Source of the DNA: Armatimonadota bacterium
GTDB taxonomy: Bacteria; Armatimonadota; UBA5829
NCBI GenBank assembly: GCA_046719185.1
Contig: JBDNDK010000001.1
Span: 1 to 50,316 of the forward strand
Reading direction: 5' to 3'
DNA: 50,316 nucleotides
Part shown: positions 5,650 through 27,015 of the stretch, piece after piece
Layout: each line of letters begins with the position of its first letter
Numbering within the stretch: position 1 is the first letter of the stretch
Notes under the pieces: model-generated
Database searches by the model: none
What the model saw: only the letters and a program-made list of their open reading frames with translations
Told to the model about the DNA's origin: nothing
Program-made: the position numbers and the translations under genes

Positions 5650-7407
5650 TTAGTTACTATTAGATATCTTACTTGCAGCTTGAGCTTTTACCTCTAAATC
5701 ATTATACATTGCATCTCTAATTTTTAATATTTTTTCAGATAAGTCATCAATTGATACTTCTGATTTTTCACCAGTTGCTCTGATTTTTAATTCAACTTTT
5801 CCTTCTGATGCTAATCTTCCACAAACTACTTGGATAGGTGAGCCAATCAAATCAGCATCTTTGAACTTTACACCTGGCCTTTCATTCCTGTCATCAATAA
5901 GAACATCCACTTTTGCAAACTTCATTTCTTCATACACTCTAGTTGCAACCTCACATTGCTTTTCATCATCAGGATTAACCAAAACAATATGCACTTCAAA
6001 AGGTGCAACACTAATAGGCCAGATTATACCATCTTTATCATGGCTTACTTCTGGAATAACTGCTAGTATTCTGCTTACTCCAATTCCATAACAACCCATA
6101 TAATAATTTTTTTCTTTTCCATCATCATCTAAAAAGCTTGCATCCATTCCTTCTGAATAGATTTTGCCAAGCTTAAAAATATGACCAATCTCAATACCTC
6201 TGACTAAATCAAAAACACCAGTATCACATTCAGGACACCTATCTCCTTTGCAAGCATTTCTAATATCAGCATATTCATCAATTTTAAAATCTCTATCAAT
6301 GCAAGCATTTATGTAGTGTGCATCAGTCTTATTTCCACCTACAACTACATTACATAATTTTTTTACTTCGTTATCTGCAACTATTTTAGCCCCGTCTAGT
6401 CCAATAGGACCGGCAAAACCAACATCAGCACCAGTTAGCTTTACGATTGTTTCAGGATCAGCCATTTCTAGCCCTTTTATATCAAGTGCTCTTGATAGTT
6501 TTGCTTCATTTAGTTCTCTGTCACCTCTAATTAAAGCAGCAATTATTGTATCATCAGCTTTATAGATAAGGGTTTTAACAAGTTTGTCTGGAGTAACATT
6601 AAGCATCTTACTTACTTGTTCAATAGTTTTAGCATTAGGTGTATCAACAAGCTGTAAATCTTTCATTTCTTCAATGTTTTCAAGTAAAGTGTCTTCTCCA
6701 ATCTCACACTTTTCCATATTTGCTGCATATCCGCATTTATCACATACAAGCACCATATCTTCACCAGCATCTGTGATGACCATATACTCTTGGCTTGCTT
6801 TGCCTCCAATAGCTCCGGAGTCAGCATCTACTACTAATGCATCCATTCCGCATCTCGCAAATGCTCTTGAAAATGCTGAATACATAGCTTTATATGAAGA
6901 ATCTAAATCTTCAGGTGTTCTATCAAAACTATAGGAATCAAGCATTATAAACTCTCTTCCTCTAACCACTCCACCTCTTGGTCTTGCCTCATCTCTGCCT
7001 TTTGTTTGTATCTGATAAAGGTTAAGAGGCAGTTGATTATAAGATTTAACATCTCTTCTAACTATATCAGTTACTATTTCTTCATGTGTAAATCCGATTG
7101 AATAATCTCTATTATTTCTATCTTTTAATCTAAATAGAACATCTAAATCCCATCTGCCTGTTTCCTGATAGAGATTAGCAGGCACTATTGCAGGCATTAA
7201 AATTTCCTGTCCACCATGGTTATCCATTTCTTCTCTTAGGATGTTTTCAATTTTTCTTAGTGTTTTATATCCAAGTGGAAGATAATTATATATTCCTGCT
7301 GCTACTTTTCTTATAAACCCTGCTCTTAATAGTAGTTTATGACTTATCATTTCCGCTTCAGCAGGAACTTCTCTTAATGTTGGGAAAAACAATTGTGAAG
7401 CTCTCAT
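5650..7407 (-). CDS. proS: prolyl-tRNA synthetase (bacterial type with INS editing domain)
   Basis: 585 aa. MRASQLFFPTLREVPAEAE..., class II motifs, a central insertion domain and a C-terminal anticodon-binding domain. GAGAGG RBS. Confidence 0.97.
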   Translation of the reverse strand: MRASQLFFPTLREVPAEAEMISHKLLLRAGFIRKVAAGIYNYLPLGYKTLRKIENILREEMDNHGGQEILMPAIVPANLYQETGRWDLDVLFRLKDRNNRDYSIGFTHEEIVTDIVRRDVKSYNQLPLNLYQIQTKGRDEARPRGGVVRGREFIMLDSYSFDRTPEDLDSSYKAMYSAFSRAFARCGMDALVVDADSGAIGGKASQEYMVITDAGEDMVLVCDKCGYAANMEKCEIGEDTLLENIEEMKDLQLVDTPNAKTIEQVSKMLNVTPDKLVKTLIYKADDTIIAALIRGDRELNEAKLSRALDIKGLEMADPETIVKLTGADVGFAGPIGLDGAKIVADNEVKKLCNVVVGGNKTDAHYINACIDRDFKIDEYADIRNACKGDRCPECDTGVFDLVRGIEIGHIFKLGKIYSEGMDASFLDDDGKEKNYYMGCYGIGVSRILAVIPEVSHDKDGIIWPISVAPFEVHIVLVNPDDEKQCEVATRVYEEMKFAKVDVLIDDRNERPGVKFKDADLIGSPIQVVCGRLASEGKVELKIRATGEKSEVSIDDLSEKILKIRDAMYNDLEVKAQAASKISNSN

Positions 7408-7431
7408 AATACCTCTCTATTCAACTAATAT

Positions 7432-7929
7432 TTACAACACTGATCCAGGTGGTCTTAATATCAAATCAGCTTCTTTACCAGTTAAACTTAGCAGCAAAGC
7501 CTCTTCACCACAATCAGGGTATTTAGGACAGTTTATACACTCTGACCACACCTTATGAGGCAGGTCATCTCTATTTATTTTAGAAAATCCAAGATTCAAA
7601 AAGAAAGAAGGTCTATATGTGAGTGCAAACACTTTTTCGACTCCAAGTTCCTTTGCTTCTTTCAAACATGCAAGAACAAGTTCTTTTCCATAACCTTTGC
7701 CTTGCATACTTGAATCAACTGCAAGACTTTTTACTTCAGCCAAATCAGCCCAGCTAACATGAAGAGCACAACAGCCAACCACTTTTCCATCTTCTTCTGC
7801 TACAAAAAAATCTCTTATACCTTCATATATAGCATTCAATGATCTAGGCAGCATTTCTCCTGCATCAGCAAAGCTGTTGATCAATCTATGAATTGCAGGC
7901 ACATCATCAATTTTAGCTTTTCTTATCAA
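7432..7929 (-). CDS. GNAT N-acetyltransferase, ArgA C-terminal-domain-like (short form), with a C-terminal Cys motif
   Basis: IRKAKIDDVPAIHRLI...VGCCALHV...LAVDSSMQGKGYGKEL matches the GNAT A/B motifs and the NAT domain of ArgA. The tail is WSECINCPKYPDC. The track start TTG 7953 lacks an RBS. TTG 7929 has GGAG 10 nt upstream. Either start overlaps the ispG 3' end. Confidence 0.75.
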   Translation of the reverse strand: MIRKAKIDDVPAIHRLINSFADAGEMLPRSLNAIYEGIRDFFVAEEDGKVVGCCALHVSWADLAEVKSLAVDSSMQGKGYGKELVLACLKEAKELGVEKVFALTYRPSFFLNLGFSKINRDDLPHKVWSECINCPKYPDCGEEALLLSLTGKEADLILRPPGSVL

Positions 7930-8980
7930 TCTGAATTTTCTCCACTTCTGCAATCAATTCATCTATCAATTCATTACTTTTAACTTTTTTCAGTGGTTCA
8001 CCATTAGAGAATAATATTCCATATTCATTAGTTCCAGATATTCCAACATCAGCCATCTGTGCTTCACCAGGACCGTTCACAACACAACCCATAACAGCAA
8101 CAGATATAGGCTTAATGATATTCATCTTTTCTAATCTATTTTTTACTTCATTAGAAATAGATTCAATGTCAATTGTAGTTCTCCCACAAGTAGGGCATGA
8201 AATTATAGTAAACTTTTTCTCTTTAAGACCTAATGAGTTTAGAATTTCGATTCCAATTTTTACCTCTTCAACTGGATCACCAGTTAATGATACTCTTATT
8301 GTATCACCAATTCCCTGAGCCAAAAGAGCTCCAATTCCAACTGAGCTTCTTATAGTACCTTCCCAAGGCAATCCGGATTCAGTTACTCCCAAATGCAATG
8401 GATATTCGCATCTATTTGCTACCATTTGATATGCATCTATCATCATAGGCACATCAAATGTTTTTAATGACAAAACTATATCAGTAAACCCAGCTTTTTC
8501 AAGTGTTTCTGCTTCATCAAGGGCAGAGTGTACTAATGCCTCAGCAGATGGTTTGCCATATTTTTTCTTATCAATCGAACCAGCATTCACGCCAATTCTT
8601 ATTGGGACATTATAATCTTTTGCTGCTTTTGCTACCTCTATGACCTTGTTTTCAGAACCAATATTGCCCGGATTTATTCTAAGTTTGTCAACACCTGATT
8701 TTAGGCTCTCTATTGCTAGTTTATAATCAAAATGAATATCTGCAACTAATGGAATTTTTATAGCTTTTTTAATTTTCTTTATTGCTTTTGCTGATTCCAT
8801 ATCTGGAACTGCAACTCTTGCTATATCACATCCTGTCATTTCAAAAGCTTTTAATTGAGATATAGTTGATTCAACATTTTGGGTTTTGGTATTTGTCATA
8901 GATTGCACTGAAATAGGTGAGTTTCCACCAATTCCAATATTTCCAGCAAATACTTTTTTTGTGATTCTTCTTTCAATCAT
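7913..8980 (-). CDS. ispG: 4-hydroxy-3-methylbut-2-en-1-yl diphosphate synthase
   Basis: 355 aa. GGNSPISVQSMTNT..., and a C-terminal CPTCGRT...MGCVVNGPGE Fe-S motif. Its ATG directly abuts the rseP stop. Confidence 0.95.
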   Translation of the reverse strand: MIERRITKKVFAGNIGIGGNSPISVQSMTNTKTQNVESTISQLKAFEMTGCDIARVAVPDMESAKAIKKIKKAIKIPLVADIHFDYKLAIESLKSGVDKLRINPGNIGSENKVIEVAKAAKDYNVPIRIGVNAGSIDKKKYGKPSAEALVHSALDEAETLEKAGFTDIVLSLKTFDVPMMIDAYQMVANRCEYPLHLGVTESGLPWEGTIRSSVGIGALLAQGIGDTIRVSLTGDPVEEVKIGIEILNSLGLKEKKFTIISCPTCGRTTIDIESISNEVKNRLEKMNIIKPISVAVMGCVVNGPGEAQMADVGISGTNEYGILFSNGEPLKKVKSNELIDELIAEVEKIQIDKKS

Positions 8981-18024: not shown

Positions 18025-18984
18025 TTGAATTCAAGAGATAGAGTTTTAAGAGGAATAAATCATGAAAAATTAGACAGATTTCCTACTGATATATGGTGTA
18101 CAGGAGAAGTATTTAATAAATTAATTCAGAATTTTGGCTCAGCAGATGAAATTTATTCTGCTCTACATATTGATGGAATTGCTATGATGATTCCTGAATA
18201 TAAATATAGTAGTATATTCACTTGAAAACTTCAAAACTATAGGTGAAATTGATAAATACAATTGGCCTAATCCAGATTGGTTTGATTATAAAAAATTAAG
18301 AGATGATGTAATAAAAAATAGAGAAAAAAGAGTTGTTTGTGTTGGTTATATGGCACCATTTTTTCTTCATAACAAGCTTAGAGGATTAGAAAATTCTTTA
18401 ATGGATCCGTATGATGACCCAGAGTTTACACACTATCTTATGAATAGAATATCTGATTTTATGTATGAAAATCACAAAAGAATGTTTGAGGCTTGTGAGG
18501 GATTAATTGATCTTACACAAGTAACTGATGATTTTGGTAGTCAAACAGGTTCAATGATAAGCCTTGATACATTTAGAGAATTTTATAAACCATATTTTAA
18601 GAGTTTTAATGACCTAGCAAAGAGCTTTGGAATTAAAGTTTTTCATCATGATGATGGATCTATGAGACCATTGCTTCCAGATTTGGTTGAACTTGGTATT
18701 GATATATTAAACACAATACAGCATAATTGCCCCGGTATGGATATGAAAGAACTAAAATCATAGTTTGGAGAAAAATTTGTATCCATGGAGCAATAGAAAA
18801 CCAGCAAATACTGCCATTTGGATCTCCTGAGGATGTAAGAAAACAAGTAAGAGACTGCATAGATGCACTTGCAAGTGACGGCACAGGATATATACTAGCA
18901 CCTTGTCATAATATCCAACCAGTAACACCAATGGAAAATATTATTGCAATATATGATGAAGCTCATAATTATGGTAAGTTTTAA
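18025..18984 (+). pseudogene. uroporphyrinogen-decarboxylase (URO-D / MtaA-like) family gene, inactivated
   Basis: Three colinear fragments in frames 1, 2 and 1 (18025-18225, 18212-18763, 18727-18984). There is a frame change plus apparent loss of ~30-40 codons near 18200-18220. There is an in-frame TAG at 18761-18763. A 1-nt shift in the A5 run at 18771-18775 restores ...KELKS*FGEK|ICIHGAIENQQILPFGSPEDVR. Confidence 0.8.
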
Positions 18985-22263: not shown

Positions 22264-22749
22264 ATTCCTACATTAGTTAATTGTTTTATCTGGATCAGAT
22301 TTTCAAATTAAATACGAATACAAAACAAGTATTAGGGTGATTATCAAAACACTTATAATTAAAAATTTGGAAGAGAAAAGCATTTGATATTCCCAATTCA
22401 TTTCAACACATAAAAAAAGCCTTTCTGAATTAAAAGATATGTATCAAAGAGGCAGGCTTTGCAGATACTACATTCGATCTTTCATCAGAAACGCAAAAAA
22501 TGGTGAAGTATTAAAAGGAATATCTTGGCTCAATTGTGCATTTTTATTATCATTTTCAGGTATGTTCTCATCAAACTTCTGGAAAGCATTAAGAGATTAG
22601 ATAACTAATCTAAAACAACCCCACAAATTATTATTTGATTATTTATATCAATAAATATCCAAAATAGGATTGTATTTACTGGAAGAATTTCCTGTTTTTG
22701 TTTATCATATACTATATTTTAAGATTATTTTTATCAATTGGAGATTAAT

Positions 22750-24294
22750 ATGATATTTCTTGGTGTAGATGTTGGTTCTGTCAGTGTGAAGTCTGTTTTG
22801 ATATCAGAAGATGGGACAATACTAAATCACCAATATATAAGGCATCATGGTCAGCCTCTGCAAATTGCAAAAAAACTTCTAGAATCTGAATTATCCAAAA
22901 ACAAAGAAATTGCAGGAATTGGTTTCACTGGTTCTGGTGGCAGAAGGATAGCTGATGCATTAGGAATGCCTTTTGAAAATGAAATCATTTGTCATTCACG
23001 ATCAGCTTCAAAACTCACACCAGAAGCAAAATGTATGATACTAGTTGGTGGAGAAGATTCATATTTTGTTCTAATGAATGAAAAAGAATCAGATGAATCA
23101 GTGGGTATAAAAGATTTTGCAATGAATGGTATTTGTGCAGCTGGTTGTGGCAGCTTTTTGGATCAGCAAGCATCAAGATTAGGCATTGATATAGAAGGTG
23201 AGTTTGGGAAACTTGCTGTTGAATCAACAAGACCATCAAGAGTTGCGGGTAGATGCAGTGTTTTTGCAAAAACTGATATGATACACCTTCAACAAAAAGC
23301 AACACCTGTTCAGGATATTGTTGCTGGTCTTTGTTTTGCATTTGCCAGAAACTATGTAGCTGTTCTAGCAAGAGGAAAAGATTTTACTCCTCCAATTGTC
23401 TTTCATGGTGGTGTCTCAAAAAATGATGGCATGGTCAGAGCATTCAAAGAAATATTAGAACTTGAAGACAACCAATTGATAATTCATGAATATTCCGCAG
23501 TAGCTGGAGCCTATGGTTCTGCATTACTTGCAAAAAACACTTATAACCCTGAGAAAAAAATTAATCTTGAAGGATTAGATCATATAAAGAATCTATCCTC
23601 TGAATCTGATAATCCTCTTCCTCCACTACCTCAACCTTCACCTGCTCCTGGAAGCAGAGTTTATGATGTAGAAACTGATAAAGTGGAAGCATATTTGGGT
23701 GTAGATATAGGCTCAATCAGCACAAATGTTGTCGTTATGGATTCTCAAAGAAGAGTATTACATAAGAGCTATCTAATGACTGCTGGCAGACCAATAGAGG
23801 CTGTAAGAAAAGGACTAGCAGAAGCATCTGAAAAACTTGCTGATAAAGTTGAAATCAGAGGAGTATGCACCACTGGCTCAGGCAGATATTTGATTGGTGA
23901 TTTTTTAGGTGCTGATGTTGTGAAAAATGAAATTACAGCACAAGCTAGAGCTGCTGTTGAGATTGATCCCAATGTTGATACTATATTTGAAATTGGTGGG
24001 CAGGATTCAAAATATATTAGCCTTGAAAATGGGGCTATTATTGATTTTGAAATGAACAAAGTATGTGCAGCTGGCACTGGTAGCTTTTTGGAAGAACAAG
24101 CAGAAAAGCTTGGAGTAAGCATAAAAGGTGAGTTTGCTCAATTGGCATTAGAAGCTCAAAACCCTGTAAGGCTTGGTGAGAGATGTACAGTATTTATGGA
24201 AAGTGATTTAGTTGGACATCAGGGCAGGGGAGCATCAACTCCTGATTTAGCTGCTGGTCTTGCATATTCAACAGTATATAACTATCATATATAA
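22750..24294 (+). CDS. BcrAD/BadFG (HgdC-type) activase, N-terminal fragment of a disrupted ~1400-aa gene
   Basis: Two tandem acetate/sugar-kinase-fold ATPase repeats: GVDVGSVSVKS...CAAGCGSFLD...RCSVFAKTDM, and GVDIGSISTN...CAAGTGSFLE...RCTVFMESDL. The likely start is ATG 22750; the track TTG at 22738 is upstream. The ORF ends in a stop inside the second repeat. Confidence 0.85.
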   Translation: MIFLGVDVGSVSVKSVLISEDGTILNHQYIRHHGQPLQIAKKLLESELSKNKEIAGIGFTGSGGRRIADALGMPFENEIICHSRSASKLTPEAKCMILVGGEDSYFVLMNEKESDESVGIKDFAMNGICAAGCGSFLDQQASRLGIDIEGEFGKLAVESTRPSRVAGRCSVFAKTDMIHLQQKATPVQDIVAGLCFAFARNYVAVLARGKDFTPPIVFHGGVSKNDGMVRAFKEILELEDNQLIIHEYSAVAGAYGSALLAKNTYNPEKKINLEGLDHIKNLSSESDNPLPPLPQPSPAPGSRVYDVETDKVEAYLGVDIGSISTNVVVMDSQRRVLHKSYLMTAGRPIEAVRKGLAEASEKLADKVEIRGVCTTGSGRYLIGDFLGADVVKNEITAQARAAVEIDPNVDTIFEIGGQDSKYISLENGAIIDFEMNKVCAAGTGSFLEEQAEKLGVSIKGEFAQLALEAQNPVRLGERCTVFMESDLVGHQGRGASTPDLAAGLAYSTVYNYHI

Positions 24295-24432
24295 AAGAAG
24301 GATTAACATAAAGAACTTTGCCCTTATTGTCGCAAATAATTACCGGGTTTTTTATTGCATCAAGATAGTTGTACTTTTCAAACATTGTAGTATTATAAAC
24401 ATCATTATCTGTTAAAATAGTATCTCTTACAT
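24286..24432. other. 147-nt foreign segment interrupting the activase gene; PAS-like coding signature on the minus strand
   Basis: The host reading frame (frame 1) continues on both sides (...AYSTVYNY | ... | IFFQGGTAFNRAVVAAF). Inside the segment it hits 5 stops (24292, 24304, 24337, 24388, 24418). The minus strand is open throughout and reads VRDTILTDNDVYNTTMFEKYNYLDAIKNPVIICDNKGKVLYVNPSF. Confidence 0.7.
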
Positions 24433-24468
24433 ATCTTCTTCCAAGGTGGAACAGCATTCAATAGAGCA

Positions 24469-27015
24469 GTGGTTGCAGCATTTCAGGCAGTTACTGGTAA
24501 GCATATCACTGTTCCAGAGCACCATGAAGTAACCGGTGCAATTGGCTGCTGTTTGATTGCAATGGAAAATGCTGTAGATGGAGTTCCAAGCAAATTCAAA
24601 GGCTGGCAGTTATCTAAAACTGAATACTTACAAACCTCATTTGAATGCAAAAGCTGTGCTAATGCTTGTGAAATAAACAAAGTTCAAATAGATGGTGGAG
24701 AAACTTTAGTTTATGGTGGTAGATGTGAGAAATTTGAAAAGAAGAAATCTGCCTCCACAAACTTGCCAGATCTCTTTGCAGAAAGAGAATCTTTAATGCT
24801 TTCTGGTTATGAAGAAGGAAAACAAATAGAAGGCAAACCTTATATTGGCATTCCAAGAGCTTTGCATTTTATGGATTTTGCTCCATATTGGATTAGCTTC
24901 TTTAAGAGTTTAGATATTCCTATAAAATTTTCTAGTCCTACTAACAAGAAAATAATAAATGATGGATTAGAGGCTGTATTAGCTGAGTTTTGTTTCCCTG
25001 TGAAAGTTGCTCATGGTCATGTTATGGAGCTTATGGAAGAAAATGTAACTCATCTATTCTTGCCATGCATAATTCAGCTTCCAAAGCTTAATGATGGTTT
25101 TGACGAGAGTGTGCAGTGTCCTTATGTTTCCACTCTCCCATACTCTATTCAGGCTGCACTTGATCCTGAAAAGCAAGGTATCAATATTTTAGCACCTGCT
25201 ATTGATTTGTCTGATGATTCTGGTAGAGCTGTTAAAAAAATGTATGAGTATATGAAAGAGCTTGGAGTAAGCAAAAATCAAATTGCAGAAGCAATGAAAG
25301 CTGGAAGAAAAGCTCAGAGTGAATTCTCAGAGAGGCTTATTGCTAGAGGCAAGGAAATATTAAAGAGTCTAGATGAAAATAAACCTGCAGTTGTGATAAT
25401 AAGCAGAGGATATAATGGCTGTGATAATGGTATTAATTTAGAGCTTCCAGAAAGATTTAAGGAACTTGATACACTTGCAATACCACTGGATATGATGCCT
25501 TTTGATGAGTATGATATATCAGATGAATATAAAATGATGTCTTGGAGATCTGGTCAGAAGATATTAACCTCAGCTGAAATAATAAGAAAAGATGATAGAT
25601 TGCATGGAGTATATGTAACAAACTTTGGGTGTGGTCCTGATTCATTTCTATTAAAGTTTTTCAGAGACAAACTAGGTGGCAAGAGCTTCCTGCAGATAGA
25701 AATTGATGAACATTCAAGTGATGTTGGAGCATTAACAAGATGTGAGGCATTCTTGGATAGTTTCAAAAAATCTAAAAAGCCAAGTGAAGCTAAAAAGAAA
25801 ATATCTAATCCTGTTTTTGATGATGATAGAACTTTATATATACCTAATATGAATAATGCAGCAGATATAGTTGCAGCTGCATTTAGGTCTGTAGGCATTT
25901 CTGCTCAACCTTTACCTGAAACAGATAAAGAATCAGTGGCAATTGGTAAGAAATACTGTACAGGTAAGGAATGTTTCCCTTGTATAGTAACAACTGGAGA
26001 TATTGTTAAATTCATATCAAGAGATGATATTGATACAAGTAAAGCTGCATTCTTTATGCCTAGCATATCAGGCTCTGGAGGTTGCAGGTTTGGCTGTTAT
26101 AACATACTTCATAGGATTGTGCTTGATGATTTAGGATATAATGATATACCAGTTTTTTCACCAAATCAGAGCAAAGGTTTTTATGAAAGCTTGGGAGCTA
26201 AAGCTGGAAAGGACTTTGTGAGAAAAGCTTGGCAGGGTCTTATTGCTAGTGAATTACTAGAAAAGGCACTTTATACTGTAAGACCGATGGAAGCAGTTGA
26301 TGGTTCAGCTTATGCAGCATACAGAAAATCTCTTGATCTTGTGATTCAAACAGTTGAAAAAAATGGCGATTTAGTATCCGCGATGAAAAAAAGCAGAGAA
26401 TATTTTGAGGCTGTGCAGACAAATTCTGATGGTCACATGTGGATTGGCATTGTTGGAGAGGTATTTGTAAGATCACATGATTTCAGTAATTCTAATCTCA
26501 TAGAATTAATTGAAGAAAGCGGTGGAAAGGCTTGGCTTTCACCTCTTAGTGAATGGCTGTATTATGTAAACCTTGGTCAGAAAACAACTGCAAAAAATGA
26601 AGGCAGATGGCTTGAGTATATAAATGTCAGCCTTATTGATAAAGTGATGAAAGATGATGAAAAGAAACTTGTTAAAGTTTGGGAAGGCTTTATTCCTCAT
26701 GCTCATGAATTAACTCCAGAGGAATTAGTAGAGCTTGGAAAAGAATATATTGATCCTGAGTTCTTTGGAGAACCTATACTTAGTCTTGGTAAATCTGAGT
26801 ATCTTAGAGAAAAAGGACTTGCTGGCATAATAAATGTAATGCCTTTCACTTGTATGCTTGGTACAATCACAAATGGCTTGCTTAAGAACTTCCAACCGAA
26901 AAATGATGGTATGCCTGTATTAAACCTAGCTTTTGATGGTCAGGAAGTTGGTGACTTGCCATTAAGATTAGAAGCATTCATGGAACAATGCAAAGCATTT
27001 AAAAATAAAAACTAA
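24469..27015 (+). CDS. activase C-terminal fragment (end of second ATPase repeat + DUF2229 / HgdB-like domains)
   Basis: 848-aa ORF from an internal GTG. Homology to the ATPase repeat already begins at 24433 (IFFQGGTAFNRAVVAAFQAVTGKHITVPEHHEVTGAIGCCLIA), in the same frame as the upstream fragment. The rest matches the large C-terminal region of CoA-substrate-specific enzyme activase proteins. Confidence 0.85.
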   Translation: MVAAFQAVTGKHITVPEHHEVTGAIGCCLIAMENAVDGVPSKFKGWQLSKTEYLQTSFECKSCANACEINKVQIDGGETLVYGGRCEKFEKKKSASTNLPDLFAERESLMLSGYEEGKQIEGKPYIGIPRALHFMDFAPYWISFFKSLDIPIKFSSPTNKKIINDGLEAVLAEFCFPVKVAHGHVMELMEENVTHLFLPCIIQLPKLNDGFDESVQCPYVSTLPYSIQAALDPEKQGINILAPAIDLSDDSGRAVKKMYEYMKELGVSKNQIAEAMKAGRKAQSEFSERLIARGKEILKSLDENKPAVVIISRGYNGCDNGINLELPERFKELDTLAIPLDMMPFDEYDISDEYKMMSWRSGQKILTSAEIIRKDDRLHGVYVTNFGCGPDSFLLKFFRDKLGGKSFLQIEIDEHSSDVGALTRCEAFLDSFKKSKKPSEAKKKISNPVFDDDRTLYIPNMNNAADIVAAAFRSVGISAQPLPETDKESVAIGKKYCTGKECFPCIVTTGDIVKFISRDDIDTSKAAFFMPSISGSGGCRFGCYNILHRIVLDDLGYNDIPVFSPNQSKGFYESLGAKAGKDFVRKAWQGLIASELLEKALYTVRPMEAVDGSAYAAYRKSLDLVIQTVEKNGDLVSAMKKSREYFEAVQTNSDGHMWIGIVGEVFVRSHDFSNSNLIELIEESGGKAWLSPLSEWLYYVNLGQKTTAKNEGRWLEYINVSLIDKVMKDDEKKLVKVWEGFIPHAHELTPEELVELGKEYIDPEFFGEPILSLGKSEYLREKGLAGIINVMPFTCMLGTITNGLLKNFQPKNDGMPVLNLAFDGQEVGDLPLRLEAFMEQCKAFKNKN

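Follow-up and report, generated by a model that had tools for sequence, protein, structure and literature searches.

How does a gene for a protein of about 1,400 amino acids (aa) come to be interrupted by 147 nucleotides (nt) that are full of stops in its own frame and open on the opposite strand? This question is raised by a locus in the Armatimonadota bacterium GenBank assembly GCA_046719185.1. The window analyzed is a stretch of 50,316 nt (positions 1 to 50,316 of contig JBDNDK010000001.1), and the gene, which encodes an acyl-CoA dehydratase activase, lies on its plus strand from position 22750. A first, sequence-only reading had taken the 147 nt to be an inverted piece of a sensor gene, introduced either by illegitimate recombination or template switching or by chimeric assembly. 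The best explanation is a recent microhomology-mediated deletion-insertion, a real event that produced a pseudogene, to which a rough probability of 0.55 was assigned. The finding amounts to a common kind of scar left by mutation or, with lower probability, to a chimera of the assembly.

Structure of the interrupted gene

The gene has the widespread architecture of the ~1,400-aa acyl-CoA dehydratase activases, with two BcrAD_BadFG ATPase domains and a DUF2229 region. In Pfam searches BcrAD_BadFG (PF01869) was matched with an E-value of 1.8e-66 in two stretches of the 5' part, while the tail of the second domain (profile positions 224-271) fell at the start of the 3' part; the C-terminal DUF2229 region (PF09989) was present with an E-value of 3.2e-63. 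The cysteine motifs CAAG.GSF and RC.VF were seen in both ATPase repeats. In this the gene resembles the HgdC/BcrAD-type activase-DUF2229 fusions (~1,400 aa), which share the architecture and carry ...CAAG(C/T)GSF... and ...(G)RC(S/T)VF... in both repeats. Activases of this type are defined by ATP-dependent electron transfer via a bridging [4Fe-4S] cluster. Unlike them, the window copy is interrupted and cannot yield a full-length protein.

The plus-strand frame reads ...DLAAGLAYSTVYNY to position 24285, and the same frame is picked up at 24433 with IFFQGGTAFNRAVVAAFQAVTG (IFFQGGTAFNRAVVAAF). Between these two points are 49 codons containing five stops (TAA at 24292, 24304 and 24337; TAG at 24388 and 24418), and CATAT occurs at both joins. 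All of this had been described by the sequence-only reading; translation confirmed the frame on either side, and the five stops and both copies of CATAT were found by direct reading at the positions given. The remainder of the 4.1-kb gene shows no second lesion in 1,366 codons. The parts of the locus are the following.

22750..24285, plus strand: activase 5' part, made up of ATPase repeat 1 and some three quarters of ATPase repeat 2 and terminating in ...AYSTVYNY (from Pfam, the translation and 77% identity to the orthologue in related genome G012).
24286..24432, minus strand: interrupting segment of 147 nt, encoding (Y)VRDTILTDNDVYNTTMFEKYNYLDAIKNPVIICDNKGKVLYVNPSF(IY), in which one PAS domain closes, a linker follows and another PAS domain opens; a core of 143 nt (24287-24429) is foreign with certainty.
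24286..24290, no strand: left junction CATAT; C24286 matches the CTC codon of the orthologue, and the rest is insert (minus-strand donor codons ...TTT ATA TAT).
24430..24434, no strand: right junction CATAT; CAT is a conserved activase His codon (CAC in the orthologue), and AT begins an Ile codon.
24433..27015, plus strand: activase 3' part, comprising what remains of ATPase repeat 2 (with the ASKHA adenosine motif IFFQGGTAFN) and the DUF2229 region.
24194..24457, minus strand: antisense open reading frame (ORF) of 87 aa, a PAS fragment flanked on both sides by antisense activase; only residues 32-55 match PAS profiles.

The 87-aa ORF is a by-product of the join and not a gene, and it should not be called a PAS protein. 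Downstream of the segment the longest ORF (848 aa) starts only from GTG 24469, beyond the IFFQGG adenosine motif, and homologues of 1,365-1,458 aa cover the activase 3' part in full. A Shine-Dalgarno-like AAGGTGGA is present at 24443-24450, 18 nt upstream of this GTG, and is made up of the Gln-Gly-Gly codons of the activase FQGG motif; at this distance it would not make a good ribosome-binding site.

Comparison with homologues

A query stitched from the two activase parts was searched in 31 related genomes. In at least 25 of the 31 the activase is contiguous, free of stops and 1,413-1,517 aa long, and among the related genomes carrying it none has a gene split at the interruption site. The closest orthologue in this set, that of G012, is intact, 1,413 aa long and 77% identical over the query, and reads NY-LNRVVGERRIGDH-IFFQGG at the site in question. 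All 13 aligned homologues, including a paralogue from the same genome, possess 13 residues between NY and IFFQGG, with the consensus LN[RK]VV(G)..+[IV]G.+. The estimate of about 13 aa, which the sequence-only reading had drawn from the first ATPase repeat, thus proved to be exact, by G012 and by the 13-homologue alignment alike. The orthologues lack the inserted segment, so it is not a conserved spacer.

The comparison also set the limits of the replacement. Likeness to the orthologues at the DNA level holds through AACTATC (C24286) and returns at CATATCTTCTTCCA (24430 onwards), leaving 24287-24429 as the foreign core. The earlier figure of about 40 nt replaced by 147 nt could thereby be refined: 35-39 nt of conserved coding sequence were exchanged for 143-147 nt, a net change of +108 nt which keeps the frame. 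This frame-keeping is of no help, since there are stops within the block and the conserved residues have been lost. With its five stops and 13 lost residues, the window copy does not contain an uninterrupted frame of ~1,400 aa that includes LNRVVG..IG.. before IFFQGG. Neither skipping the block nor inverting it restores the protein, and we agree with the previous view that a length divisible by three is coincidental.

As part of a real deletion-insertion, the window activase is probably a pseudogene in which the stops split the protein inside the second ATPase domain, and the 514-aa and 848-aa ORFs should be annotated as one pseudogene. An intact paralogue is located on contig C251 (~6305-8530, minus strand); its open frame of 1,427 aa is 47% identical and keeps the 13-residue segment. 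This paralogue may cover the function, making the window copy dispensable.

Origin of the inserted block

The minus strand of the segment was confirmed to be without a stop, reading (Y)VRDTILTDNDVYNTTMFEKYNYLDAIKNPVIICDNKGKVLYVNPSF. It is the only open frame among the six: the plus-strand frames contain 5, 1 and 3 stops, those of the minus strand 4, 7 and 0. When the block was shuffled 20,000 times, this minus frame was open in 1% of cases, and any frame was open in 6.5%. Codon usage was scored with a table built from the genome's own 1,286 long ORFs. The minus frame of the block scored 0.18, compared to a host in-frame mean of 0.29 (sd 0.10), which places it at the 14th percentile; host means for off-frame and antisense reading were -0.87 and -0.79, and the block lies far outside both distributions. 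Its G+C content at third codon positions (GC3) was 0.208 (host mean 0.215), and its total GC content of 26.5% is among the lowest 8.5% of host windows of 147 nt. Such a pattern goes beyond chance, and the block is genuine coding DNA with host-like codon usage, in reversed orientation.

Pfam profiles pointed to the PAS family. The best profile was PAS_8 (E 0.0033, 17.7 bits, as compared to a gathering cut-off of 21.8), followed by PAS (E 0.03) and PAS_4 (E 0.22). The match spans profile positions ~1-30 only; it stays below the gathering score because only about 25 residues of the domain are present, and a fragment of this length cannot reach the cut-off. A phmmer search of 1.84 billion representative proteins returned 13 matches at E<1e-3. 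The best of them, P0122, is a protein of 1,030 aa (E 1.5e-12, six stretches) with 5-6 PAS domains and a methyl-accepting chemotaxis protein (MCP) signalling domain. The three matches that were scanned with Pfam (P0122, P0125 and P0126) are all multi-PAS proteins with 2-6 PAS domains each; in P0125 and P0126, which are multi-PAS histidine kinases, the best stretch starts with a PAS domain or close to its first residues.

In pairwise alignment YVRD-TILTD was paired with YIQD--ITE of P0122, which represents the last strand of a PAS domain and its exit linker, while EKYNYLDAIKNPVIICDNKGKVLYVNPS was paired with EKINNLDAIPTPIKAIDNNFNITYINPA, the beginning of the next PAS domain. Judged from these alignments, the block is an inter-PAS junction of a multi-PAS signalling gene. 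The sequence-only reading had proposed the reversed start of a PAS sensor domain; the PAS origin is upheld by phmmer and Pfam, and the proposal is to be amended in that the block is not merely a domain start but also includes the end of the previous PAS domain and the linker.

Proposed mechanism

If real, the interruption most likely arose by a double template switch while DNA was being replicated or a break repaired, either of the microhomology-mediated break-induced replication (MMBIR)/fork stalling and template switching (FoSTeS) type or as a templated insertion in alternative end-joining. A stretch of 35-39 nt, coding for the helix-loop LNRVVGERRIGD(H) that is conserved in the second ATPase domain, would have been lost, and the gap would have been filled by ~143-147 nt copied in reverse orientation from between two PAS domains. 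In such a scheme the growing 3' end would quit the activase template after ...AACTAT(C), anneal through a microhomology of a few bases to the antisense strand of the PAS gene, copy about 145 nt and then re-anneal at CATAT, 39 nt downstream of its exit point.

Several features of the joins bear on this scheme. The two junctions are 143-147 nt apart, with a colinear return to the same gene 39 nt downstream, and a double junction with colinear return is the expected product of a double template switch. Read on the minus strand, the right CATAT supplies the G of the Val codon GTA and the Tyr codon TAT in YVRD, this Tyr being aligned with the conserved Tyr at the PAS end (YIQD) in P0122; the right-hand CATA(T) is probably a microhomology of 4-5 nt common to donor and acceptor. 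CATAT is found at both joins, and the block has neither terminal inverted repeats nor a second copy in the genome. No Ku gene was found in the 93%-complete genome, which favours template switching over capture by classical non-homologous end joining. The event would be recent, since the gene carries no further lesion.

The closest category among known systems is the template-switch/MMBIR templated insertion or complex indel, and no new kind of element is involved. In FoSTeS/MMBIR or short-range template-switch insertions, too, a small deletion is replaced by a stretch copied from another place, in many cases inverted, and each join shows microhomology of a few bases; FoSTeS/MMBIR insertions show no transposon features, as is the case here. 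Classical short-range template switches copy within the same locus, whereas the template here lies outside the 50-kb contig and outside the assembled 2.5 Mb, which would make this a long-range switch. The biological weight of the event is small: a real event would add one case to the genes destroyed by complex indels with templated inverted filler, here with an intact paralogue kept. It is of mild interest for mutation mechanisms, as it would offer a clean and young case of long-range templated insertion in a bacterium seemingly devoid of Ku.

Search for the donor gene

Several results weigh against a real deletion-insertion, the first of them concerning the donor. A donor PAS gene, which the sequence-only reading had suggested seeking in the rest of the genome or bin, was not found in the metagenome-assembled genome (MAG), where BLASTN (word size 7) and tblastn gave only 16-nt chance matches and generic PAS similarity of at most 42%. 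Neither GTDB genome contigs, searched for an exact 48-nt pattern and for peptide patterns, nor JGI metagenome contigs, searched for peptide patterns, disclosed a donor. None was found in a collection of 5.8 billion proteins by two word-based searches (length classes 330-1050 and 770-2450 aa; padded query, stops read through, only residues 1-50 scored), and the phmmer scan of 1.84 billion proteins contained no donor copy. In addition, the collections hold no second genome of the species, the activase product occurs on one contig only with the nearest protein 66% identical, and inverted orientation with short microhomology is also a signature of amplification chimeras (PMC1855051).

Plasmid and phage collections contained no match to the block, and the block peptide searched against 28 genomes of the family gave E-values of 0.05 or worse. 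Two JGI peptide-pattern matches were judged spurious; the one inspected (L025) is a 733-aa non-PAS ORF sharing only CDNKGKVL. An identifiable matching donor, by which templated insertions are recognized, is thus lacking in the searched collections, and the genome being incomplete, this absence is no proof.

At least 12 PAS genes are present in the host. Several of them contain 3-5 PAS repeats, and three run off contig ends. The first is a gene for a multi-PAS membrane sensor of at least 792 aa (C13:24561-26936, plus strand), which leaves the 3' end of its contig inside the third PAS domain and is a donor candidate. The second, a histidine kinase gene (C228:1-1059, plus strand), begins inside a PAS region, and the third encodes a PAS-containing MCP (C123:788-3829, plus strand). 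When the genes at the end of C13 and the start of C228 were tested as the visible part of the donor, only generic PAS-level similarity to the phmmer matches was observed. Sensor genes are evidently under-assembled in this bin. As repeat-rich PAS genes assemble badly and binning drops short contigs, the simplest assumption is an endogenous donor in the missing part of the genome; the donor most likely came from the same organism and lies in an unassembled or unbinned part.

Real event or assembly artefact

The chief competitor of a real deletion-insertion is an artefact, in which an amplification or library chimera, or an error of gap closing or local assembly, put a read-sized PAS piece from the same sample into the contig while the real gene is intact. 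This is a possibility to be taken seriously, although it is the less likely of the two. The MAG is fragmented (2.50 Mb in 282 contigs, all of at least 2.5 kb; 34.2% GC, 93% completeness), the length of the insert is near that of one 150-nt read, and the gene is otherwise perfectly intact. The missing donor and the lack of a second assembly for cross-checking fit an artefact as well; exact look-ups of the 514-aa, 87-aa and 848-aa products in other assemblies gave no match.

Chimeras formed in multiple displacement amplification (MDA) are inverted in more than 85% of cases, with 2-21 nt of complementarity at the joins (Lasken & Stockwell 2007; PMC1855051), and the inverted orientation and short microhomology seen here are typical of them. 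However, these chimeras are mostly intramolecular and local (PMC1855051), and the donor is nowhere in the 50-kb contig. MDA and library chimeras are moreover mostly single joins to a nearby source, whereas two junctions here enclose 143-147 nt with a precise return to the gene. An artefact would need two independent junctions 147 nt apart and a colinear return in frame only 39 nt downstream.

The assembly itself appears to be sound, with ~87% coding, ORFs of 250 aa or more covering 66% of bases, and no Ns, and no poor consensus was seen elsewhere. De Bruijn or other graph assemblers cannot join sequences over an overlap of 5 nt, so that reads must span the junctions. Such assemblers require k-mer support at a junction and normally prune low-coverage chimeric paths in favour of the true path, which speaks against a chimeric link in the contig. 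Should the block nevertheless be an artefact, it would illustrate that MAG contigs can carry read-sized chimeric blocks which mimic pseudogenes.

A second damaged gene is found in the window. A UroD/MtaA-family gene at 18025-18984 is broken into three frames and shows three lesions: its frame shifts near 18200, meets an in-frame TAG at 18761 and shifts again directly beyond this stop. In this lineage the UroD/MtaA family is greatly expanded, with 13 matches in the bacterium's own genome and up to 56 in G012. This multiply damaged neighbour indicates that real pseudogenes occur here and that dispensable paralogues decay.

Less probable explanations

Capture of foreign DNA, in which the event is real and the insert comes from another organism (e.g. 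environmental DNA used as filler in break repair), is improbable. It would account for the failure to find a donor in a 93%-complete bin and for the low GC content of the insert (26.5%, lowest 8.5% of host windows), but codon usage and GC3 fit the host, and the host has many multi-PAS genes of its own, three of them cut by contig ends. No similar sequence was present in the public collections searched (GTDB, JGI, proteins, plasmids, phages).

A functional interruption is very unlikely. Here the product would still be made, by a ribosome hop from CAU 24286 to CAU 24430, by site-specific inversion or as two separately translated halves. In its favour one could cite the CAT-AT shared by the two ends, the first CAT being followed two codons later by a stop, as well as the length divisible by three and the AAGGTGGA at 24443-24450 ahead of GTG 24469. 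The split is, however, inside an ATPase domain and no relative is split there; the Shine-Dalgarno-like motif is 18 nt away from the GTG; and the insert is plainly an antisense scrap of another gene. The fold of the block RNA is no better than that of shuffles (z +0.61), and there is no Rfam match and no flanking inverted repeat. An in-place inversion cannot be in frame at both ends and would add PAS residues.

The hop of 144 nt, which would give an activase with a shortened helix in the second ATPase domain, is extremely improbable, its product ...VYNYH-IFFQGG being without 12 residues that are conserved in 13 of 13 homologues. If true, it would amount to a long-range counterpart, in a cell, of the bypass in phage T4 gene 60. 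As in gene 60, there is a non-coding gap in a continuous frame, with identical take-off and landing codons and an early stop. In contrast to gene 60, the gap is 144 nt instead of 50, a stable take-off hairpin is lacking, the take-off codon is not directly followed by the stop, and the bypass product would miss the 12 conserved residues.

Other identities of the block were considered and rejected. No Rfam family was detected inside it at E<=1, and with a fold z of +0.61 it was dismissed as a structured RNA or bypass element. A miniature inverted-repeat transposable element, an insertion sequence (IS) or an inverton did not apply, there being no terminal inverted repeats and no other copy in the genome. 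An in-place inversion was excluded by frame arithmetic on the coordinates, and an IS200/IS605-type insertion beside TTAC is at odds with the orientation. When the whole genome was screened for further genes broken by antisense-coding blocks, the screen proved unspecific and picked up mostly real genes of the opposite strand.

Genome and lineage context

The 474 nt directly upstream of the activase start (window 22264-22737) are without a convincing ORF and were also uncovered in a crude gene map. The lineage is very poorly sampled: the nearest relatives of the activase reach 66% identity in the protein collection and 77% in a single 8.2-Mb genome from this family, and HisD from the window matches no named genome above ~53% identity. 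With 2.5 Mb and 34% GC, the genome is among the smallest in its family (2.1-8.2 Mb).

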